DNA from: an uncultured Verrucomicrobiae bacterium
Lineage (GTDB): Bacteria > Verrucomicrobiota > Verrucomicrobiia > Limisphaerales > UBA11358
DNA: 64,000 nucleotides
Assembly (NCBI GenBank): GCA_963714695.1
Contig: CAVQPQ010000001.1
Coordinates: 7,880-71,879 of the forward strand
Direction: 5' to 3'
This document shows positions 3,412 through 28,058 of the stretch, in pieces. The position numbers and the translations under genes were made by a program. The stretch's first letter is position 1, and every line of letters begins with the position of its first letter. Below the pieces are notes generated by a model, which did not search any database, was not told the DNA's origin, and worked only from the letters and a program-made list of their open reading frames with translations.

Positions 3412-4221
3412 ATGAAGCAATCCCAATCCAAATCCCGAATGGACCGGGCGGCTGATGGTTTTATCACCCAGCGCCTGGCCTTGGGGCGCGTCGCTTTCCC
3501 GCTGGCGGATTTGGTCAAAGCGACTGGGTTGTCGGTGACGGCAGCCAGAAATCAGTTGTTGCGGTTGAAAAACCGGGTGACGAGAGTTTCGCCCCGCCAT
3601 CAGTTTTTTCTGATCGTCAGCCCTGAACACAGTGCGGTGGGGGCACCACCCGTGGCGTGGTGGCTGCACGATTATTTTCAATGGTTGGGTGAGCCGTATT
3701 ATCTGGCGCTTCAGTCGGCAGCCAGTTCACTCGGTTCAAATCCGCAGGCATTGCAAGTGACACAGGTGATGACCAGGATTTCGCGGCGTGCCGTGGAGGT
3801 AGGCCGTATTCGCATCCAGTTTTTTGTGAAACGCACTGTGGAGCAGACACCAACGCAGCCATTGGCAAATGCGTTTGCACCGTTGCAAGTCAGCACGCCA
3901 GAGGCAACCGCTTTTGATTTGATCCGATACGCTGCGCGCATCGGCGGCATTGGCCGGGCGGCGGAAACCATCGCTCCGCTGTTGCCGCTCATACGCCCGG
4001 CTGAAATGCGGCGGGTGCTGAAAATCGAAGACGAGCCGGCCACGGCGCAGCGCCTGGGGTTTGTGCTGGAAAAATTGCGGGCGACCGACTTGGCCAAAGT
4101 CGTTGAAAATTGGTTGCCGGCGGATTTGGTATTTGTGCCGCTGGTTCCGGGTGTGCGCGGTGTCGCTCCTGAAATCAAACGGTGGCGAATTCTTAACAAC
4201 GCCGGGGAGTTTGAACGATGA
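3412..4221 (+). CDS. abiEi: Type IV toxin-antitoxin / abortive infection antitoxin, AbiEi family
   Basis: 269 aa. N-terminal wHTH-like region and C-terminal AbiEi_4-like region. 4-bp ATGA overlap with the downstream AbiEii gene. Confidence 0.75.
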   Translation: MKQSQSKSRMDRAADGFITQRLALGRVAFPLADLVKATGLSVTAARNQLLRLKNRVTRVSPRHQFFLIVSPEHSAVGAPPVAWWLHDYFQWLGEPYYLALQSAASSLGSNPQALQVTQVMTRISRRAVEVGRIRIQFFVKRTVEQTPTQPLANAFAPLQVSTPEATAFDLIRYAARIGGIGRAAETIAPLLPLIRPAEMRRVLKIEDEPATAQRLGFVLEKLRATDLAKVVENWLPADLVFVPLVPGVRGVAPEIKRWRILNNAGEFER

Positions 4222-5069
4222 CAACGCCCATCACCCGCCGGGATGTCATCGCCCATCAGGCGGTCGTTCCGTGGCCGAGCCAGATTCAAGTCGAGCAAGA
4301 TTTATTGTTGTGCCGGGCGATGGTGGCGCTGTTCGATGATGCTTTTCTGCAAAGTCAGATTGCCATGCGCGGCGGCACGTTGCTGCACAAGGTTCATCTC
4401 GCGCCGCCATCACGATACAGCGAGGATATTGATCTGGTCGTGGTGGGTGATCGCCCGGAGGGTCACATTCGCAAGGCGCTCAATCGGGTTTTGAAGGGCG
4501 TGCTGGGAACTCCAAAGCAGTCCGCGTGGGCTGATCTCAAACTGGCCATTCGCAACACCGTGAAACCGTCGCGGGTGCTGCGGATGACTTACGCGATTCC
4601 TTCCCTGATGGAACCGGGAACGAACATGGAAATCGTGGTAGAGGCCAACGTCACCGAGCGCAAGCCGCATCGCCCGGTGATTAAAATCCCGTTTGAATTT
4701 CCGTTTCGGGATGCGGCGGTCAGCACACAGGTCAGCGGCCATGACATCCATGAAATGCTGGGAACAAAAATGCGGGCACTGTTTCAACGCCGACGCGGGC
4801 GGGATTTATTTGACCTGTATTGGGCGCTGACGCTGGCCAAACCAGCGGTTAATCCCGCGCAGATTATCGAGTCGTTTCAACATTATCTAAAATTGGAAGG
4901 CAGTGTTGCCGGACGGGCAGAGTATATATCGCTGCTGGACGCGCATCTGGCCAACCGTGGATTTTGTTCGGATATGAATCCATTGTTACGCGTGGGAATC
5001 ACCTACGACCCGCAGCAGGCCGGGGACTATGTGAAAACCAAACTGCTCTCCTTGTTGCCGGCACGCTGA
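4218..5069 (+). CDS. abiEii: Nucleotidyltransferase toxin, AbiEii/AbiGii family (DUF1814)
   Basis: 283 aa. Motifs MRGGTLLHKV and YSEDIDLVV (nucleotidyltransferase GS/D-x-D core) and RGRDLFDLYW are typical of AbiEii. Confidence 0.85.
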   Translation: MTTPITRRDVIAHQAVVPWPSQIQVEQDLLLCRAMVALFDDAFLQSQIAMRGGTLLHKVHLAPPSRYSEDIDLVVVGDRPEGHIRKALNRVLKGVLGTPKQSAWADLKLAIRNTVKPSRVLRMTYAIPSLMEPGTNMEIVVEANVTERKPHRPVIKIPFEFPFRDAAVSTQVSGHDIHEMLGTKMRALFQRRRGRDLFDLYWALTLAKPAVNPAQIIESFQHYLKLEGSVAGRAEYISLLDAHLANRGFCSDMNPLLRVGITYDPQQAGDYVKTKLLSLLPAR

Positions 5070-6760: not shown

Positions 6761-6817
6761 GTGATTCGTGAAGCGTGAAAACGTGATTGTGCATCACGCA
6801 TCACGTTTCACGTTTCA
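6761..6817. repeat. Heptanucleotide array forming a hairpin between the luxC-like stop and the queD start
   Basis: Left arm is GTGATTC GTGAAGC GTGAAAA CGTGATT. The GTGC loop is followed by the right arm ATCACGC ATCACGT TTCACGT TTCA. The array overlaps the luxC-like stop codon at 6808-6810. Confidence 0.75.
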
Positions 6818-8268
6818 AAATCGGTCCATGTCACCAAATCGCCCAGCGCGGGCCGGCCATCGTGACGCCACGTTAGCGGCGGGTTTTGCATCCGGCCCAG
6901 CGGGCACACCCGCGTCACGCCCCAGCGCGCCAGTTGCTCCGCCAATTCGCGCGCTTTTCGTTCCGGCGCGGCGATGCCAACGGTCGAAACCTGGCCGCGC
7001 ATGCACTCGGCGTTTTGCAGCATCTCGTGCAAATCCTTCACGCCCTTCACATAAACAAACCGGTTCAGGCATGACAGTTGGAAACGCGGATCCGCTTCGT
7101 AAATCACCGTCCACGCCGTTGAATCCCGGCTGTGCCACATCAAAGTTTCCGCTCCCTCGGTGCGGGCGGCCGCGCGCACCTGGTAGAACGCCCGGCGCGA
7201 CGCGATGACCGCCGCATGTTCCGTTGCCAGCTCGCCGCGCGGCTCCGTTTGCTCGCGCCGCTCCAATTCATCCGCAAGCATTTCCGCGAATTGTTCCGGC
7301 GACACTTTGCCGCCAGACTGGACGTATATTACGTGCGGCGAAAGACAGCCCAACTGGTTCCACGCCACCACGTCATCCGCCGCGTGGGAAATGATCTGCC
7401 GGGCGCTCGAAACATGTAAAACCGCGCTGTCCACATAACCAAAACTCACGCGCTGGCCGTACCCAAGAAATCGGATTTTAACCGGCAAACGCGCGCGGAT
7501 GTCCGCCAATGTCTCGTCACTGCCCGTCGCCGTCACACAATCAGCCCCGGCAAACAACGCGGTTTCCAAATCAACTTTGCCACCGCGCCACTCGGCGATT
7601 TCCAGGCAGGCGCCCAGTTTGGGGTCGGCATCATAAAGCGAGTGGGCGAACAGCCGGGGCAAAAACGCCGCGCCGCTCGCGCATTTCACAAATTGCGCCG
7701 AACGGGTCAGCAGGCCGAGCACGATGCTCATCAACGCCGGATTCGGAACGTTGCCCGGCGCGATGTGGACGATAAATTCCGGGCCGCGCCAAAAATGACG
7801 TGGGACGTGTGACGTGGGACGTGGGGAAACTGCATCGCTTGTCACCTGACACCCGTCGCCTGTCACACTGATGGCATCGCCCAATTCCTGTTCCAACAAC
7901 GCCTGTAAATTTTCAGCTGTGAGTTGCCGGAAAAAATTGTCCAGGCCCTTTTCCAACGTGGCGCGGGAAAAAACAGGTCCCGGAGCGCCGGGCACCGTCC
8001 CGGCAACCTTCAACCCCTGGCTTTGGTTCAAGCCGAGGCGGTGCCCGGCGCTCCCCGTTTGCTCCAGGGTCAGCTTGCGGAACCGGTTTTCCGCCCGCAA
8101 CCAGTCCTCCGCCACGTCGCTCAGTGTTTTTATGAGCTGTTCCGTTGAACGGCCGGCAAGATAACGCTCGCGATTGCGCTTCAGCGTCTGGCACGCCTCC
8201 GTGATCATCGCCGGCGACAACGTCGCTTCCGGCGGCAGATCGGCGAGAAAATAATTGGGCAGGCTCAT
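6808..8268 (-). CDS. LuxC-like acyl-CoA/acyl-protein reductase
   Basis: Motif HIAPGNVPNPALMSIVLGLLTRSAQFVKCASG is typical of the LuxC family. Start chosen at the ATG at 8268, which forms an ATGA overlap with the luxE-like stop. Confidence 0.8.
   Translation of the reverse strand: MSLPNYFLADLPPEATLSPAMITEACQTLKRNRERYLAGRSTEQLIKTLSDVAEDWLRAENRFRKLTLEQTGSAGHRLGLNQSQGLKVAGTVPGAPGPVFSRATLEKGLDNFFRQLTAENLQALLEQELGDAISVTGDGCQVTSDAVSPRPTSHVPRHFWRGPEFIVHIAPGNVPNPALMSIVLGLLTRSAQFVKCASGAAFLPRLFAHSLYDADPKLGACLEIAEWRGGKVDLETALFAGADCVTATGSDETLADIRARLPVKIRFLGYGQRVSFGYVDSAVLHVSSARQIISHAADDVVAWNQLGCLSPHVIYVQSGGKVSPEQFAEMLADELERREQTEPRGELATEHAAVIASRRAFYQVRAAARTEGAETLMWHSRDSTAWTVIYEADPRFQLSCLNRFVYVKGVKDLHEMLQNAECMRGQVSTVGIAAPERKARELAEQLARWGVTRVCPLGRMQNPPLTWRHDGRPALGDLVTWTDFET
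7796..7868. repeat. Heptanucleotide arrays inside luxC-like ORF
   Basis: TGACGTG GGACGTG TGACGTG GGACGTG lies at 7796-7823. After 17 bp comes GTCACCT GACACCC GTCGCCT GTCACAC (7841-7868), which is partly complementary. Confidence 0.7.
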
Positions 8269-9539
8269 TGGATTGCGGAGTGCGGAATGTGGAGTGCGGA
8301 ATGAGCCATCAGCGAACATCCGCGCGGTTCGGCCAGGGTCGCGCGGCCAATTAATTCAAATCCGTTGCCGCGACGGATCCCCAAATCTTCCGTTTGAATG
8401 GCCATGACGGAAAACCCGTTCGCCAAATCGAACACGCGAATCAAACCGGTTTCGCCATCAGCCACCTCGCGCCCCGTCTCGGGCGAAACGATCTGGACAC
8501 GAGTCCAAGGGGGAAAATGAAAAAGACGGGTGACACATTCTGGGAGCGCCGGCGTCCCGCCGGCAAGTTCCTTTGTCGCGGTTGGAAGAATTCGCCGGCG
8601 GGGCGCCGGCGCTCCCAGGTCATACGCCTGCGAACTCAACTCGCTCATGCCGTATTCGCAGATGATGTGCGATGGCGGCACACCGAGTTTTTCGGTGATG
8701 AGTCCATGCAATTCAATTTTGGGCAGGGAACGGGATCGGCCTTTGTAACCGCCGGTTTCCATCACGCGTGACCCGGCGGGCAAATCGAAACGCAGATTTT
8801 TCTCCGCCAGAAAATCAAGCAAATGCACGAAGGAAAAGGCCGTGCCCAGAATCAATTGCGGATTGCGGATTGCGGATTGCGGATTGTTGCCCAGCGCCGC
8901 AATCGCACGGTCGAATTCCAGCGTCCACGCGCCGTCCGTTGCCAGTTTGCCGACGAACGCAGTTTCCGGCGCGCCCAGGTTTTGCCGCACGGTTTCAAAC
9001 ATGCGGACGAGTGACGAGTGTGGCGCCTGCGCTGGCGGCGGCGTCAAAATTATCAGTCCGCAATCCGCAATCCGCAATCCGCAATTCTGAAACACGTTTT
9101 CCAGGAACCAAGGCAGCAATGAAGCCTCATACAATTTCAACGACTCGAGCGAATGGAAGTGGCGGCTTGGACGTTGTTCCGTCGTACCGCTGGAATGGAA
9201 AACCGCGATGCGTTCCGCCGGCGTCAGACAGGTCAAATCCAGTTCCTTGAACGCCGATGTCGGCACGGCCGGAATGCGCGCCCAATGTTCGACAACTCCT
9301 GGCGCAAGGCCACGCGATTCGCAGATTTTCCGGTAGGCGGCGTTGGATTTAAATTGCAGCGCAAAAAGTTCGCACGCAAGCCGGTTAAAAACGTTATCGC
9401 AGGAGCCGACGCAAGGAGGCTTGTTTTTTGTTCTGCCAGTGGTAGCTGGAGAAAGACTCCTCACGTCGGCTCCTACATCGGAAAAGAAAATAATGGCCTC
9501 GCGCAAACGCGCGGCAAAGTTTGAAAGTTCGGTGATCAT
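8265..9539 (-). CDS. LuxE-like acyl-protein synthetase (adenylate-forming)
   Basis: Motifs FALQFKSNAAYRKICE, IPAVPTSAFK and VFHSSGTTEQRPSRHF. Start chosen at MITELSNF (9539). The ORF contains four repeat insertions (see findings). Confidence 0.8.
   Translation of the reverse strand: MITELSNFAARLREAIIFFSDVGADVRSLSPATTGRTKNKPPCVGSCDNVFNRLACELFALQFKSNAAYRKICESRGLAPGVVEHWARIPAVPTSAFKELDLTCLTPAERIAVFHSSGTTEQRPSRHFHSLESLKLYEASLLPWFLENVFQNCGLRIADCGLIILTPPPAQAPHSSLVRMFETVRQNLGAPETAFVGKLATDGAWTLEFDRAIAALGNNPQSAIRNPQLILGTAFSFVHLLDFLAEKNLRFDLPAGSRVMETGGYKGRSRSLPKIELHGLITEKLGVPPSHIICEYGMSELSSQAYDLGAPAPRRRILPTATKELAGGTPALPECVTRLFHFPPWTRVQIVSPETGREVADGETGLIRVFDLANGFSVMAIQTEDLGIRRGNGFELIGRATLAEPRGCSLMAHSALHIPHSAIQ
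8270..8304. repeat. Heptanucleotide array at the luxE-like 3' end
   Basis: GGATTGC GGAGTGC GGAATGT GGAGTGC GGAATGA. It encodes the C-terminal ..HSALHIPHSAIQ and starts directly beside the overlapping luxE-like stop and luxC-like start codons. Confidence 0.75.
8540..8618. repeat. Family A palindromic element (WERRRPAGE type), copy inside luxE-like ORF
   Basis: Arms are CTGGGAGCGCCGGCGTCCCGCCGGC and GCCGGCGGGGCGCCGGCGCTCCCAG. The ORF stays open and reads ..APAPRRRILPTATKELAGGTPALPE.. Confidence 0.85.
8853..8887. repeat. Heptanucleotide array (GGATTGC)n inside luxE-like ORF
   Basis: CAATTGC GGATTGC GGATTGC GGATTGC GGATTGT. Confidence 0.9.
9064..9098. repeat. Heptanucleotide array (CAATCCG)n inside luxE-like ORF, inverted partner of 8853-8887
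   Basis: CAGTCCG CAATCCG CAATCCG CAATCCG CAATTCT. It is the reverse complement of the 8853-8887 array, 176 bp away. Confidence 0.9.
9397..9477. repeat. Family C palindromic element inside luxE-like ORF (81 bp)
   Basis: Arms are GCAGGAGCCGACGCAAGGAGGC and GACTCCTCACGTCGGCTCCTACA. The element translates as ..VGADVRSLSPATTGRTKNKPPCVGS.. Confidence 0.8.
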
Positions 9540-9682
9540 GCGGTTTTTGTTTGCCGGCTGGTTTTCCGCCACAGCCGGATGGAATTGTAGCAAGGAATGA
9601 CCTTCCAGCAAGTGCGATTCCGTTTCATTCGAACGCTGCGCAGGATTGCCAATGGCGCCTGTGTCCGTCACACTGCTTTTCA

Positions 9683-11239
9683 ATGAGCAAACAGTTTTAC
9701 ATCACCACCGCCATTTATTACGTCAACGGCCAGCCGCATCTCGGCCATGCCTATGAGAAAATCGTCGCCGACGTCATCGCCCGGTCGCGCCGCAGTCTCG
9801 GACAGGAAACTTTTTTCCTGACCGGGCTGGATGAACACGGCCAGAAGGTTCAGCAAGCCGCCGTCGCCGAAGGGAAAACGCCGCAGGCGTATTGCGACAA
9901 ACTGGCGGCTGACTGGAAGGCGTTCGCCAAAAAACTGGAGTTGACCAACGACGATTTCGTCCGCACCACCGAGCCGCGACACAAGGAAATCGTCCAGGCC
10001 GGCCTCGCGAAGGTGCACCAGGCTGGCCAAATTTACAAAAAAACCTACTCGGGCTTTTACTCGACCAAGGAGGAAACCTTTCTGACCGACAAGGACCGCC
10101 GTCCGGATGGAACGTTCGATCCCAGTTACGGTGAAGTCATCGAACTGCAGGAGGAGAATTATTTCTTCAAGCTGAACGAGCATCAGCAATGGCTGATTGA
10201 TTACCTGGCGGCGAATCCGACGTTCGTCCAGCCCGATCATCGCCGCAATGAGGTGCTTGGTTTTCTCAAGAACAATGAACTGGAAGACCTGTGCATCTCC
10301 CGTCCGGCGGCGCGTTTGAACTGGGGCATTCCCCTGCCCTTCGACAAGGATTTTGTCACCTACGTCTGGTTCGATGCGCTGGTGAATTACATCAGCATCG
10401 CCGCCGCCCACGGCGATCCCACCGTCTGGTCCGTCTTGTCCCCGTCAGCCCGCGCGCATCCCTCGCCGCTTTACCTCTGGCCCGCCGACGTTCACGTGAT
10501 CGGCAAGGACATTGTGAAATTTCACGCCGTCTATTGGCCGATCATGCTCAAGGCGATGGGCCTGCCGCTGCCGAAGCAAATCCTCGTGCACGGCTGGTGG
10601 CAGAAGGACGGCGCGAAAATCAGCAAAAGCACCGGCAACATTGTTGACCCGATTGCGGTCATTGACGAATGGGGCCTGGACGCCTTTCGGTTTTACGTTT
10701 TGCGCGAGCTCGACATCGGCCCGGACGGCAACTGGACTGATGCGGGATTCAAGTCACGTTATCAGGCCGAACTGGCGAACGGCTTGGGCAATCTCGTCAA
10801 CCGCTCGCTCTCGATGCTCAAACGTTACCGTAACGGAGTTGTGCCGGCCAAGAACGACGAACTCGCCGCCGCCGCCGCGAAAACCGCGGACGAAACGCGC
10901 GCCTTGCTCAAACAAAACCAGCTCCAAGCGGCCTTGCAAAGCATCTGGGGACTTGTCACGCGCGCCAATCAATACGTGGACCAGACCGCGCCGTTCAAGC
11001 TGGCCAAGGACCCGGCGCAGGCCAAACGGCTTGACGAAGTGCTCTACAATCTGACGGAAACCTGCCGGGTGCTGGCGGTTTTGCTCTGGCCGTTCCTGCC
11101 CGGCACGGCGGTGAAAATATACGCGCAACTTGGATTGACCGGCGCGCCGGACAAGCTGGACGCCGCGACCTGGGGCGGTCTGGCCGCCGGCCATAAAATC
11201 GGCGAGCCCGCGCCCCTGTTTCCGCGCAAGGAAGCCTGA
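9683..11239 (+). CDS. metG: Methionine--tRNA ligase
   Basis: Start at MSKQFYITTAIYYVNGQPHLGHAYE (HIGH-type motif). KISKS is present (GAKISKSTGN). Confidence 0.95.
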   Translation: MSKQFYITTAIYYVNGQPHLGHAYEKIVADVIARSRRSLGQETFFLTGLDEHGQKVQQAAVAEGKTPQAYCDKLAADWKAFAKKLELTNDDFVRTTEPRHKEIVQAGLAKVHQAGQIYKKTYSGFYSTKEETFLTDKDRRPDGTFDPSYGEVIELQEENYFFKLNEHQQWLIDYLAANPTFVQPDHRRNEVLGFLKNNELEDLCISRPAARLNWGIPLPFDKDFVTYVWFDALVNYISIAAAHGDPTVWSVLSPSARAHPSPLYLWPADVHVIGKDIVKFHAVYWPIMLKAMGLPLPKQILVHGWWQKDGAKISKSTGNIVDPIAVIDEWGLDAFRFYVLRELDIGPDGNWTDAGFKSRYQAELANGLGNLVNRSLSMLKRYRNGVVPAKNDELAAAAAKTADETRALLKQNQLQAALQSIWGLVTRANQYVDQTAPFKLAKDPAQAKRLDEVLYNLTETCRVLAVLLWPFLPGTAVKIYAQLGLTGAPDKLDAATWGGLAAGHKIGEPAPLFPRKEA

Positions 11240-22275: not shown

Positions 22276-24087
22276 ATGAACAATCCGAACACAGAAAATC
22301 CGCCGCCCGCCGCCCCGTCCGATTTTATCCGCGACATCGTGGAAAAACACGTCGCTGAGAAGAAATATCCGCGCATCCACACGCGTTTTCCGCCCGAACC
22401 GAACGGCTACCTGCACATCGGCCATGCCAAGAGCATCTGCCTGAACTTTGGCATCGCGCGCGAATTCGGCGGCATCTGCAACCTGCGCATGGACGACACC
22501 AACCCGGCCAAGGAAGACGTCGAATACGTGGATTCCATCATCGAAGATGTGAACTGGCTCATCAGCGCCTGGGCCGATAAAAATCTTGGCCTCAAGCCGA
22601 AAGGGAAAACGCCCGAAGCTGTCACGTCAAACGGCAAGCCGGATTTTTATCTGGGAGCAGTTACGGGAACATCCAACATCCAACATCCAACATCCAACAT
22701 CCAAGTCGAAGCGTTTTACGCCTCGGACTACTTCGACCAGATTTACGAATACGCCGTCGCGCTCATCAAGAAAGGCAAGGCCTACGTCTGCGACCTGACG
22801 CCGGACCAGACGGATGAATACCGCCGCAACGCCAAGGAAAGCCCGTTCCGCAACCGCAGCATCGAGGAAAGTCTCGACCTGTTTACGCGAATGAAGAACG
22901 GCGAGTTCCCCGATGGCACGCGCACGCTGCGCGCGAAGATTGACGTGACCGCGCCGAACATCTGGATGCGCGACCCGCTCATTTACCGCATCCGCCACGC
23001 CGAACATCATCACACCGGCGGCAAATGGTGCATTTATCCGATGTACGATTTCGCGCATTGCCTGAGCGATTATCTCGAAGGCATTACGCACAGCATTTGC
23101 ACGCTGGAATTCGAGGTGCATCGCCCGCTGTACGACTGGATATTGGAGAACCTGGATCTGCCGCGTCCCCTACCCCATCAATATGAATTCGCGCGTCTCA
23201 GCCTCACCTACACCATCATGAGCAAACGCAAGCTCATGCAGCTTGTGAACGAAAAACTCGTAACCGGCTGGGACGACCCGCGCATGCCCACCATCAGCGG
23301 CATCCGGCGGCGCGGCGTCACTGCGGAAGCCCTGCGCGCGTTTGCCTACAACATCGGCATCACCAAATACAACGGCCTCACCGACGTGGCCGTGCTGGAA
23401 TTCGCCATCCGCGAAGACCTGAACAAACGCGCCCTGCGCCGCCTCGCCGTGCTGCGCCCAATCAAGGTCATCATCACGAATTTTCCGGAAGGCAAAACCG
23501 AGGAATTGGATGCCGTCAACAACCCCGAGGATGAAAACGCGGGCAAACGGACAATTCCTTTCAGCCGCGAACTATTCATCGAGCAGGACGATTTCAAGGA
23601 AGTTGCCGTGCCGAAATATTTCCGGTTGAAACCCGGCGGCGAAGTCCGGCTGAAATACGCCTACATCATCAAATGCGACGAAGTGGTGAAGGACGCCGCC
23701 GGCAACATCACCGAGCTGCGCTGCACCGCCGATCTCGACAGCAAGAGTGGCGGAGCCACGGCGGCGCGCAAAGTTAAGGGAACAATTCATTGGGTAAGCG
23801 CCGCGCACGCCGTGGATGCCGAAGTACGCCTCTACGACCGCCTGTTCACCGAAGCCGAGCCGGAAAAAGATGGTCGCGATTTCAAGTCCGTGCTCAACCC
23901 GCACTCGCTCGAAGTGGTGACGGCCAAATGCGAGCCGAGCCTGAAAGACGTAAAACCGGAACTGCGCTATCAATTCGAGCGCCTCGCCTACTTCGCGTCG
24001 GACAAAGACACCACGCCCGGCAAGCTGGTTTTGAATCGGACGATAACGCTGAAAGACACTTGGGCGAAGGAAGCGCAGAAAGGTTAA
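22276..24087 (+). CDS. glnS: Glutamine--tRNA ligase
   Basis: Motifs [17 protein letters not shown] (HIGH) and VMSKRK-type TIMSKRKL. It is collinear with E. coli GlnRS as I recall it, apart from an insertion after DVNWL. Confidence 0.95.
22668..22705. repeat. Heptanucleotide array (ATCCAAC)n inside glnS ORF
   Basis: Four exact ATCCAAC units plus ATCCAAG. It translates as [12 protein letters not shown]. Confidence 0.9.
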
Positions 24088-24094
24088 CCCAAAG

Positions 24095-24337
24095 ATGAGC
24101 GTCGAGAAAACATTGGAAAAGCTGCTGCGCGGAGAATCCGATGCCAACATCCGCTTTGAGGAGCTTTGCCATTTGCTCCAGGCCAAAGGTTTTCGGATGC
24201 GCATATCGGGCAGCCATCATATTTTCACCCAGCCCGGCGTGTTGGAGCGCATCAATCTCCAACGCGAAAGCTCAAAGGCAAAACCATATCAGGTTCGACA
24301 AGTGCGAAAGATTCTGGCAAACTACAGAATGTTATGA
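24095..24337 (+). CDS. hicA: HicA-family mRNA interferase toxin
   Basis: 80 aa. [18 protein letters not shown] is typical of HicA/YcfA. ATGA overlap with hicB. Confidence 0.8.
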
Positions 24338-24549
24338 AACAGAACACATACGAGATGATTATCTGGTGGAGCGCCGAAGACGGTGCCTACGTGGTGGATG
24401 TGCCGGAGCTTCCCGGCTGCATGGCTCACGGCTCGACGCGGCAGGAAGCCATAAAAAACGCCGAGGACGCCATCAAGTTCTGGCTCAAGACCGCGAAGGA
24501 CGACGGTCTGGAAATCCCGCAACCGCGCGGGCGGCTGGTTTTTGCGTGA
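24334..24549 (+). CDS. hicB: HicB-family antitoxin
   Basis: 71 aa. [29 protein letters not shown] is typical of the HicB N-domain. Confidence 0.8.
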
Positions 24550-24716
24550 CGGCGAAGTGCGAACCGAGCCTGAAAGACGCGAAGCCGAAGCTGCGTTATC
24601 AATTCGAGCGCCTCGCCTATTTCGCGTTGGACAAAGACAGCGCGCCCGGTAAGTTGGTTTTGAATCGTACGATCACGTTAAAAGACACCTGAGCGAAGGA
24701 AGCGCAGAAAGGGTAA
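24546..24716 (+). pseudogene. Displaced duplicate of the last 57 codons of glnS
   Basis: 171 bp, collinear with 23917-24087 without indels. 149 of 171 bases are identical by my count. TGG (Trp) is replaced by TGA. Confidence 0.85.
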
Positions 24717-24723
24717 ATGCTTG

Positions 24724-25686
24724 ATGATCACAAGCCCGATCCGAAAGCTACGAAACCTACTTATCCTGTTTGCCTGCCTGCTGACGGCGCTGGTGTTGGT
24801 CGCTGTTCCATTTTGTAACAGGGAACCACGCTACCAGGGCCACTCCCTGAGTTACTGGGTCACGCTTTACGGCGACACCGCTTGGGATGAAGGCGGCGAC
24901 CCGAAAGCACGGGAAGCGATTTCTCACATCGGGACTAACGCCTTACCGTTTCTATTGAATTGGATCCGTTATGAGCAACAACCATCTTGGGTTAGAACCG
25001 CATCCATATCTTTTTTCTCGCGCAGAGTACCAAAGGCTATCACATCCGAAGCACTTGTGAAATGGGTATGCGAGGATAAGGAAGAATCCAGAGCGGATGG
25101 TGCGGCCCACGCTTTCTATGCTCTTGGTCCCCAGGTCCAGCCTGCGCTTCCCGAGCTCTTCAGACTGATGAACGACCGCAGTTCCACCAACGTCTCTCCC
25201 CGGCCTCAACTTGCTCCATGCGAGCGGGCTGAACTTGCCCTGCTCTATTCCAGAAACGATGACGCTATACCATTGTTCCTCGCACACATCGCCAACACGA
25301 ACGCCCCGAACCGCGCCGAAGTGGTCTTTTTGGTAGGTCTCTACGATCTGACAACAAATGCCGGACCCGCCGTACCAATGCTTATCCAATGCCTCATAGA
25401 CAATGATCCCGAAGTGATAAAAGAGGCGGCCAGGGCACTTACCAAATGCGACCTCAAGCCAGGATTCATCTTGCCAGCACTGACTAACTGTCTTGTGACT
25501 TCTACCAACCCTCTTCTTCGCAGCCGGGCAATCTGGGTACTTGGCAACTTCAAACCCCAAGTCCGCTTGACCCAACCGTTTCTCATCGCGGCACTCCAGG
25601 ATCCTGACGCCAACGTGCGCAAGCAAGCAACGAACGCCCTCCTGAAAATCGCTCCTGAGGTATTCACCAACACGCCAACACAGTAA
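24724..25686 (+). CDS. HEAT-repeat protein with N-terminal membrane anchor
   Basis: TM LLILFACLLTALVLVAV. HEAT-like repeats include DPEVIKEAARALTK and DANVRKQATNALLKI. Confidence 0.65.
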   Translation: MITSPIRKLRNLLILFACLLTALVLVAVPFCNREPRYQGHSLSYWVTLYGDTAWDEGGDPKAREAISHIGTNALPFLLNWIRYEQQPSWVRTASISFFSRRVPKAITSEALVKWVCEDKEESRADGAAHAFYALGPQVQPALPELFRLMNDRSSTNVSPRPQLAPCERAELALLYSRNDDAIPLFLAHIANTNAPNRAEVVFLVGLYDLTTNAGPAVPMLIQCLIDNDPEVIKEAARALTKCDLKPGFILPALTNCLVTSTNPLLRSRAIWVLGNFKPQVRLTQPFLIAALQDPDANVRKQATNALLKIAPEVFTNTPTQ

Positions 25687-25863: not shown

Positions 25864-26211
25864 CCCATTGCCGCTCCGCGGTCGGGCGAACAAATCAGCC
25901 GCTTATGCCTGGTACGCTTATCACGCTGAACAATGGAACAAATTGAATGAGTTGATCCCCAAACTGGGAACGGTGAATTATAAATATTTTGGCGGCGAAG
26001 ATGAGTTCAACAAAATGCTCCGGCTCGCCAAAGAACACGCCGAAAAAACCTAAATAGTAGCTCTCGTCCCAGCAGGGACACCGGAAATTAGCCCGGCACA
26101 TGTGCCGGGTTTATCGCCCAACATTTAAATCCGTCCTGCCGTGTCGCGCCCGCACTTGCTGGAGCATTGAGCCTGTGGCTCGACCCTGTAGCCAAGGCAG
26201 ATTTTTTTTGA

Positions 26212-26374
26212 CGCCCGCCCTCACCTTTTATCCTCTCCCCCGGGGAGAGGAAATAGCTGTTGGCCAGTTCCGGTTTTCAGGATGGCCAGCCGGCAAATCC
26301 CGTCGCAGGTTTCTCAATTGGACTGCGGACGATTCACCCTCTCCCGGGGGAGAGGGCCGGGGTGAGGGCGAGCG
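26212..26374. repeat. Two family B hairpin elements in inverted orientation (composite palindrome)
   Basis: CGCCCGCCCTCACC-N6-CCTCTCCCCCGGGGAGAGG lies at 26212-26250. CCCTCTCCCGGGGGAGAGGG-CCGG-GGTGAGGGCGAGCG lies at 26337-26374. Confidence 0.85.
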
Positions 26375-26476
26375 TCTCCCACAACCAACTTTGCTTTTCC
26401 ATCGTCCCGCCGGTACTTGACATATTCTTCACGCCAACCGGGACGTTGTCCCCGGCTAATCTCCGTTGCCGCTCCG

Positions 26477-27677: not shown

Positions 27678-28058
27678 ATGGCGGATGAATCGTTCAAAGA
27701 ATTTGTGCTGGACCAGTTGCGCGCATTGCCGGATGTGCGTGCCAAGGCGATGTTCGGCGCGCATGGACTGTATCAAGACGAACATTTCTTCGGGATTTTG
27801 GACGAGGGCCGGTTGTTTTTCAAAACGGACGCGCAATCGCAGGCGGATTATGTGGCGCGCGGCATGGAACCCTTCACTTACGAATCGAGGGGGCGCACGC
27901 TGACGATGAGTTATCACGAAGTGCCGCTGGACGTGCTGGAAAATGCGCCGGAACTGGCGGCTTGGGCGCGCCGGGCAATCGAGGTGGCCGCCCGCAGCGG
28001 GAAATCTCGGAAACCATCCCGCCGGAACAAAGGAAATCAGTCCGACGCGCCGGTGTAA
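27678..28058 (+). CDS. TfoX/Sxy N-terminal domain protein
   Basis: FKEFVLDQL..VRAKAMFGAHGLYQDEHFFGIL..GRLFFKTD is typical of TfoX_N. Confidence 0.75.
   Translation: MADESFKEFVLDQLRALPDVRAKAMFGAHGLYQDEHFFGILDEGRLFFKTDAQSQADYVARGMEPFTYESRGRTLTMSYHEVPLDVLENAPELAAWARRAIEVAARSGKSRKPSRRNKGNQSDAPV

Follow-up and report, generated by a model that had tools for sequence, protein, structure and literature searches.

Orphan arrays at Vibrio type VI secretion system (T6SS) clusters and at rhs loci are proposed to form via homology-facilitated illegitimate recombination with sequential displacement (Kirchberger et al. 2017, PMC5361080), and C-terminal displacement in rhs loci is attributed, in the citation given by PMC5361080, to Jackson et al. 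(2009). Cis-mobilizable elements (CIMEs) and microCIMEs are tiny att-flanked remnants of integrative elements that lie in tandem arrays at the 3' ends of genes (PMC7563491). The movement of chromosomal toxin-antitoxin modules that carry no mobility gene is an open question, for which recent work proposes that toxin-antitoxin islets spread via homologous recombination at flanking core genes (PMC13617665). The stretch analyzed here, called the window, is 64,000 nucleotides (nt) of DNA from an uncultured Verrucomicrobiae bacterium in which a hicAB toxin-antitoxin operon lies directly after glnS and is followed by a second copy of the glnS 3' end. In the interpretation favored here, a hitch-hiking toxin-antitoxin cassette displaced the 3' end of an essential gene, through recombination anchored in glnS and then homologous reshuffling; this account is judged somewhat likelier to be right than wrong.

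All features in this paragraph are on the plus strand. The glnS gene (22276..24087) was an intact open reading frame (ORF) for a glutaminyl-tRNA synthetase of 603 amino acids (aa), with Pfam matches to PF00749, PF03950 and PF20974 (E down to 5e-103) that comprise tRNA-synt_1c and both anticodon-binding domains. A total of 8000 homologues of GlnS was retrieved, the top match being 92% identical, and the closest match in a comparison with genomes had 85% identity (Verrucomicrobiota). The last 57 codons including the stop (23917..24087), identified by sequence comparison, are designated copy A and form the functional 3' end. The hicA toxin gene (24095..24337, 80 aa, PF07927) starts 7 nt past the glnS TAA and overlaps the hicB antitoxin gene (24334..24549, 71 aa, PF15919, 48.8 bits) by the ATGA at 24334-24337. 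Copy B (24546..24716), recognized by sequence comparison and by relics with the same junction in the related contigs L086, L090 and L179, is a displaced, non-functional glnS 3' end, and the hicB TGA (24547-24549) falls within its initial four bases. A HEAT-repeat gene (24724..25686; Pfam HEAT_2/HEAT and gene calls) starts 7 nt past the TAA of this relic, a spacing which indicates that the relic preserves the original junction of glnS with the next gene.

Copies A and B were collinear, without indels, and differed at 22 of 171 bases (87.1% identity). The 19 differing codons comprised 13 synonymous changes, five missense changes (V/A, E/K, S/L, T/S and T/A) and one change of TGG to TGA at 24690-24692. 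The homology began exactly at 23917 and 24546, where the 60 bases upstream matched at only 17 of 60 positions, and it ended exactly after the TAA, where the 60 bases downstream matched at 14 of 60. These counts, the collinearity, the exact ends and the position of the hicB stop inside copy B reproduced those of the original prediction, which had been made from the letters of the window. By blastn the 64-kb window held only the two tail copies (E=5e-57), and neither a third copy nor a larger island was found in it.

The ratio of nonsynonymous to synonymous divergence (dN/dS) was calculated by the method of Nei and Gojobori with the stop codon excluded. Synonymous differences numbered 16 at 38 sites and nonsynonymous ones 5 at 127 sites (Fisher P=3e-8), giving dS=0.62, dN=0.040 and dN/dS=0.065, so that the synonymous bias first noticed codon by codon persisted in a formal test. 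When 22 random substitutions were simulated at the observed transition/transversion ratio, 14.1 +/- 1.9 amino-acid-level codon changes were expected; 6 were observed (P=5e-5). The low dN/dS together with the high dS indicates that the tails diverged, under strong purifying selection, as working glnS genes in separate lineages, as had been proposed, and one of the two tails appears to have come from another lineage. A C-terminal consensus of GlnS was derived from 120 relatives with 84-92% identity. The peptide of copy B equalled this consensus except for E>K (24588-24590) and the W>stop change, while four residues of copy A (V, S, T and T) were unique and departed from it. The relic is therefore an almost untouched ordinary tail in which decay would have just begun, and the working tail is of an unusual type. 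The glnS-hicAB-relic arrangement was present on >16 independent contigs from four sources (ENA, NCBI, JGI and Logan) produced by several assemblers, which excludes an assembly artefact.

Related contigs compared with the window carry L-numbers (L090 is JGI 3300038619, L086 is ERZ25039479 and L093 is Ga0224554_1000674). HicAB was found after glnS in L086, L090 and L179/L180, and a cassette with the distal copy absent was not seen in any glnS-linked case. Mismatch counts between L090 and the window fell into three segments. In glnS 44 of 324 bases (13.6%) differed over 23338-23661; over 23662-24553, from the final 426 nt of glnS through both hic genes to the eighth base of copy B, there were 0 differences in 892 nt; and in the relic 8 of 55 bases (14.5%) differed, the mismatches lying within 24554-24599 and five of the eight being synonymous. 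The glnS tail and hicAB thus appear to have moved recently as a block between two lineages whose native sequences, relics included, differ by ~14%. The left breakpoint (23661/23662) lies 255 nt upstream of the repeat, which fits homologous recombination and not an att site, and the transferred block is no fixed unit of 171 nt plus 458 nt. L090 is probably the recipient, since the distance of L086 to the window hardly changed at 23662 (5.2% before it and 4.7% after it).

The glnS of L086 was ~93.5% identical to that of the window, with the divergence uneven along the gene, and its functional tail, of the consensus type, differed from copy A at 11 of 171 bases (6.4%). Its hicAB differed from that of the window at 3 of 458 bases, and its relic differed from copy B at 4 of 113 bases (3.5%) and had the derived E>K in common with it before ending, after 113 nt, in unrelated AT-rich DNA. 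The co-varying block between the window and L086 was hicAB plus the relic, not the functional tail; because copy B and the L086 relic are more alike than the functional glnS tails of the two contigs, a relic can travel with hicAB. Upstream of glnS, L086 was unlike the window, with a HepT/MNT toxin-antitoxin pair and a gene for a leucine-rich repeat (LRR) protein of the BspA type at 1-1935. A 1-nt deletion at ~3718 of L086 splits its glnS call into 536 and 65 aa; the gene being essential, the deletion is probably an error of long-read assembly and not a genuine frameshift.

L179/L180 had the same order of glnS, hicAB and relic with the same GTGAC junction and a HicA 95% identical to that of the window, and the L179 relic (73% identity, indels and an internal stop) was much more decayed. 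The hicB-relic junction was identical in four lineages with different relics, and the downstream genes differed by lineage, a HEAT gene following in the window, a 349-aa ORF in L179 and the AT-rich DNA in L086. Taken together, these comparisons depict the locus as a recombination mosaic produced by frequent homologous recombination, in which any sub-block would be exchangeable, and the relic as either the own displaced tail of a lineage or an imported passenger. The proposal that a tail had arrived together with hicAB was borne out by the block transfer in L090; in the window lineage itself either copy, A or B, may be the immigrant. The distal copy is best read as a decaying relic, as first suggested, in view of the TGA in the window, the indels and stops in L179 and the truncations in L086 and L093.

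Relatives in which glnS lacks the cassette, which the original prediction had proposed to look for, were also found. The nearest full-length GlnS relatives (92% and 89% identical) were without hicAB and were not syntenic downstream; no gene adjoined glnS in the former, a lipase gene lay directly after it in the latter, and in L092 a DUF7380/DUF4209 gene followed glnS. These varied neighbors mark the 3' flank of glnS as a variable spot in the group. Neither hicAB nor a second glnS tail was present in 80 species representatives of GTDB, and in 79 of 80 metagenome loci neither hicAB nor a relic followed glnS, the exception being L093, which has a relic with different cargo.

In L093 (3745-4545), glnS is followed by a zeta-toxin-like gene (PF06414) starting at the glnS stop, a small ORF and a truncated glnS relic of ~86 nt that is nearer to the family consensus and copy B than to the functional tail of L093 itself. 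The HicA family had 1754 matches, with >120 clusters in the range of 83-95% identity; almost all members are 80 aa long, and several were named HicA by JGI or NCBI. In the contexts sampled the gene directly ahead of hicAB was glnS, ilvD, scpB or an unknown one, and the orientation was the same throughout. At ilvD, L192 (2866-3632) contained ilvD, hicAB, an 80-nt fragment and an ilvD tail relic that was 83-87% identical and had a 1-nt deletion. L196/L197 carried ilvD, hicAB, a first relic, a pair made up of an Rv0078B-like antitoxin and a 189-aa ORF, and a second relic (L196 2834-4469). The first of these relics (~139 nt, with 93% identity to the ilvD tail over its last 100 nt) is separated from the hicB stop by 5 nt and showed, counted by eye, 6 synonymous versus 2 missense changes; the second is ~70 nt long. 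Three copies of the ilvD tail were present in L182 (2559-3760), two of which, 91.6% identical, flank hicAB and a 65-aa ORF. Serial arrays of displaced ends were accordingly seen at ilvD in L196/L197 and L182, and the window itself has two copies only. No duplicated tail was found at the scpB-linked and pheA-linked hicAB copies (L183, L184 and L186), so that the relic is not universal in the HicA family. The pattern recurs at no fewer than two target genes with at least three cargo types in soil and peat Verrucomicrobiota.

Pieces of sequence from other neighborhoods were seen around several of these cassettes. The hicA leaders of L182 (2968-3000) and L183 (2960-3000), which are linked to ilvD and scpB, contain AAAGAAGCACAG..TAAC, equal to the last codons of glnS and its stop, which would fit a former residence of the cassette downstream of glnS. 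A fragment (...KKDDFIAPARRAFRRV...) that encodes MKNG..KKDDFIAPAR(R/K)AFRRV is common to L192 (3453-3533) and L093 (~4305-4380); it has an ATGA overlap on the preceding stop in both, and its fusion with the ilvD relic in L192 suggests recombination between different cassettes. On this evidence cassettes seem to drag along fragments of former neighbors.

The following sequence of events is proposed. A hicAB operon would reside right after a conserved housekeeping gene, in the same orientation and without a recognizable promoter of its own. Donor DNA would enter a related lineage, and recombination anchored in glnS would place the complete foreign glnS tail and hicAB ahead of the resident tail. 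A short homology would serve for the far join, namely GTGAC or, if the donor already had a relic, the beginning of that relic. Following this event glnS would be intact and the redundant tail would be left as a relic that decays. The founding event would be of the homology-facilitated illegitimate recombination type. The junction GTGAC (24546..24550) is common to the hicB end (GCG TGA C) and to the glnS site at 23917-23921, and it is possible that these 5 nt were the microhomology of the founding join; they include the stop codon, so chance or later trimming may account for them. At later times glnS as left arm and the relic as right arm, both targeting glnS, would allow ordinary homologous recombination to reshuffle occupied loci and to insert the cassette into empty ones without a dedicated recombinase. 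The blocks swapped among lineages would be glnS tail plus hicAB or hicAB plus relic. The constant junction would require either very short right-hand tracts, which homology-facilitated illegitimate recombination permits where the left side is anchored, or exchange between occupied loci, in which crossovers would stop where identity drops at the relic.

Several observations weigh against this account. The hicB-relic junction is constant although the relics differ almost from the first bases, for which a site-specific crossover is the simpler explanation, since a right-hand homologous crossover should leave a stretch of donor type. The relic begins 0-5 nt after the hicB stop in two independent targets, glnS and ilvD (L196), which is not predicted by a random illegitimate join. 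No conspecific empty site was found among 12 contigs with an identical downstream HEAT protein; hicAB and the relic are present on each one that extends far enough upstream, the two shortest contigs reach no further than the last 90 nt of the relic, and the direction of the event in the window lineage is therefore inferred. The integrase search took in the 64-kb window of this genome, and the later counts on relative lineages were made by eye rather than by script.

The strongest competitor to gene-anchored recombination, thought improbable but not negligible, is a decayed integrative element (micro-CIME). A tyrosine or serine integrase would have targeted the 3' end of glnS with a replacement tail, everything but hicAB would since have been deleted, and the two copies would be attL and attR; an integrase elsewhere might still mobilize the remnant, and the ilvD arrays would be tandem accretions of remnants. 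The architecture is exactly that of elements inserted at the 3' end of a tRNA or protein gene, a constant junction goes with lineage-specific relics, the more decayed relic of the tandem array in L196 is farthest from the gene as described for streptococcal CIMEs and microCIMEs (PMC7563491), and when an island erodes its toxin-antitoxin modules are expected to survive (PMC13617665). However, no integrase, transposase or other recombinase domain was detected by Pfam scans of 42 ORFs spread across the 64-kb window, in agreement with the statement of the original prediction that none was nearby, and no integrase was seen in the called genes of ~25 related loci. There was no tRNA or tmRNA gene in the window. 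No core was common to the glnS junction (GTGACGGC) and the ilvD junctions (L196, L182 and L192). Conservation of the cassette family, in two alignments, started ~10-20 nt before the hicA ATG and ended at the hicB stop, leaving no conserved non-coding ends, and no inverted or direct terminal repeats, shared flanking repeats or attC-like element were found across the family alignments. The L090 tract starts well upstream of the would-be att, between the window and L086 it is the relic that hicAB co-varies with, not the tail which the element is supposed to have brought, and none of the viral contigs carried this HicA or a glnS tail fragment; there was no plasmid match either. An integron gene cassette was considered and rejected, as the hicB stop abuts the relic without non-coding 3' sequence, no structure is conserved in the family and no integrase was found in the scanned ORFs. 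The likeness to tRNA-targeting elements pointed out earlier holds, on this evidence, for the architecture rather than for the mechanism, the data being a better fit to gene-anchored recombination than to a site-specific integrase.

One ancient insertion, in a common ancestor of every glnS-hicAB lineage, after which the relics diverged vertically and later recombination homogenized glnS-hicAB, would explain why the junction does not vary among the glnS-linked cases; the relic might then have been kept for a ribosome-binding site or promoter of the downstream gene, as it holds the native 7-nt spacing to that gene with no terminator between them, and the heavy decay of the L179 relic would be expected. 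This is considered quite unlikely, because most differences between the window relic and the L090 relic are synonymous and copy B has almost the consensus peptide, so that these relics were functional tails until recently and not old neutral DNA, and because the downstream genes differ between lineages. Direct repeats around a small insert can also arise by in-place tandem duplication, here of the glnS tail with hicAB between the copies and subsequent decay, or could reflect an assembly chimera. Both were given next to no credence and are regarded as refuted. The dN/dS and dS of the copies are incompatible with the decay of a duplicate, which the original prediction had likewise dismissed and which the simulated number of amino-acid-level changes excludes, and the same structure recurs on contigs of separate origin and assembly.

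A stronger version of gene-anchored recombination is offered as a tentative suggestion, which may well prove wrong. The duplicated tail would be the working part of a new recombinase-free mobile unit with two homology arms, a complete replacement tail on the left and a relic on the right, both aimed at one universally conserved essential gene. Such a unit would insert into related genomes via host recombination whatever lies downstream, would be expressed from the transcript of the essential gene and would be hard to lose through addiction, and its serial reuse would build the toxin-antitoxin arrays behind glnS and ilvD.

HicA (PF07927) is expected to be an mRNA-cleaving toxin and HicB (PF15919) its protein antitoxin. 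The HicA of the window matched PF07927 at 27.2 bits (E=4e-6), which is borderline against a cut-off of 27.0, and contains a GSHH motif. HicB covers positions 2-58 of the 123 in the PF15919 profile, that is, the N-terminal HicB domain only; the C-terminal DNA-binding domain (ribbon-helix-helix or helix-turn-helix) used for autoregulation is not in the 71-aa protein. No NCBIfam model matched HicA, HicB or the zeta-like protein of L093. Toxin-antitoxin activity of the pair is inferred from these family assignments. No promoter- or terminator-like site was predicted between glnS and 25785, and since in addition hicA lies 7 nt after the glnS stop, hicAB is probably transcribed by read-through from glnS. 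With the relic in place, the HEAT gene retains its original spacing and the sequence upstream of it, which may make such an insertion tolerable.

Other features of the locus and the window were recorded. Within the coding sequence of glnS, 22668-22704 is a perfect 7-nt tandem repeat (AACATCC x 5.3) encoding 12 residues in a loop of variable length across relatives (GlnS 595-648 aa). A repeat unit not divisible by three is unusual in an essential gene; L086 has the same length there. The 3' end of hicB (CGCGCGGGCGGCTGGTTTT, 24524-24542) resembles the interior of the glnS tail (24014-24032 and 24643-24661) at 15 of 19 bases, and the L086 relic (~4564) is truncated exactly at a CGCGCGGGCGGCTGGTTTT-like site. 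The similarity was considered as a recombination site and may be due to chance or mark a recombination-prone sequence. G-rich palindromic repeats (GGTGAGGG..., GEGRGEGE in one frame) were found between genes at 26210-26376 of the window and at 2775-2815 of L182, in the latter separating ilvD from the first relic of its tail. At 3412-5069 of the window lies an AbiEi/AbiEii type IV toxin-antitoxin (abortive infection) pair, and no duplicated gene ends were found around it. Genes for a LuxC-like acyl-CoA reductase and a LuxE-like acyl-protein synthetase (6808-11239) adjoin metG. A gene with a TfoX N-terminal domain (27678-28058), ~3 kb downstream, adjoins a response regulator, and the pair is kept in L179; the TfoX-domain gene offers weak circumstantial support for natural competence.

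The locus and its relatives provide a sequence-level footprint for the movement of such modules, consisting of a synonymously diverged displaced tail, datable transfer tracts and serial arrays. This footprint can be searched for as a short relic of the tail of the upstream gene behind a small cargo, which would turn the question into a testable survey. The locus also hints that, in an under-studied soil and peat phylum, selfish or defense cassettes have insertion hot spots in the 3' flanks of genes for aminoacyl-tRNA synthetases and biosynthesis.

The 3'-end displacement is known from other systems and appears here to be extended to essential housekeeping genes with toxin-antitoxin cargo. As in displacement at rhs, cdiA and T6SS loci, the conserved 5' part of the gene serves as anchor, an incoming 3' end and a small toxin or protector cargo are placed before the old end, the old end persists as an orphan fragment, and repeats of the process give arrays (here at ilvD, L196 and L182). 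Homology-facilitated illegitimate recombination followed by spread through homologous recombination is the route proposed in common. The host gene here, unlike in those systems, is an essential housekeeping enzyme (glnS or ilvD) and not a polymorphic toxin, the tips are functionally equivalent with mostly synonymous differences so that nothing is gained from changing the tip, and the cargo is an intracellular type II toxin-antitoxin pair rather than an effector tip with its immunity gene. Integrative elements and CIMEs (PMC7563491) share with the window the direct repeats from a gene 3' end (171 nt, 87%), the intact gene on the left and displaced end on the right, and the tandem accretion in which remnants are older the farther they lie from the gene. 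They differ in that no integrase, relaxase or att core was found here, in that repeat lengths (171, ~140 and ~83 nt) and junction sequences vary by target, and in that the tracts are not bounded by the repeats.

HicAB type II systems (PF07927, PF15919) resemble the pair in the toxin-first order, the small size of the proteins, the overlap of the genes and Pfam matches above threshold; they are unlike it in that the HicB of the window is short and without the DNA-binding domain, the 7 nt after the glnS stop leave no space for a separate promoter and NCBIfam gave no match. Toxin-antitoxin islets (PMC13617665) and the minimal mobile elements of Neisseria (PMC3082526 and others) are likewise tiny cassettes without mobility genes that lie between core genes and are moved via recombination in the flanks. 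Right-hand homology derived from a duplicated piece of the left gene was not found described in the literature searched. Unlike in islets and minimal mobile elements, only the left flank is conserved between lineages here, and the homology on the right is a duplicated piece of the left gene.

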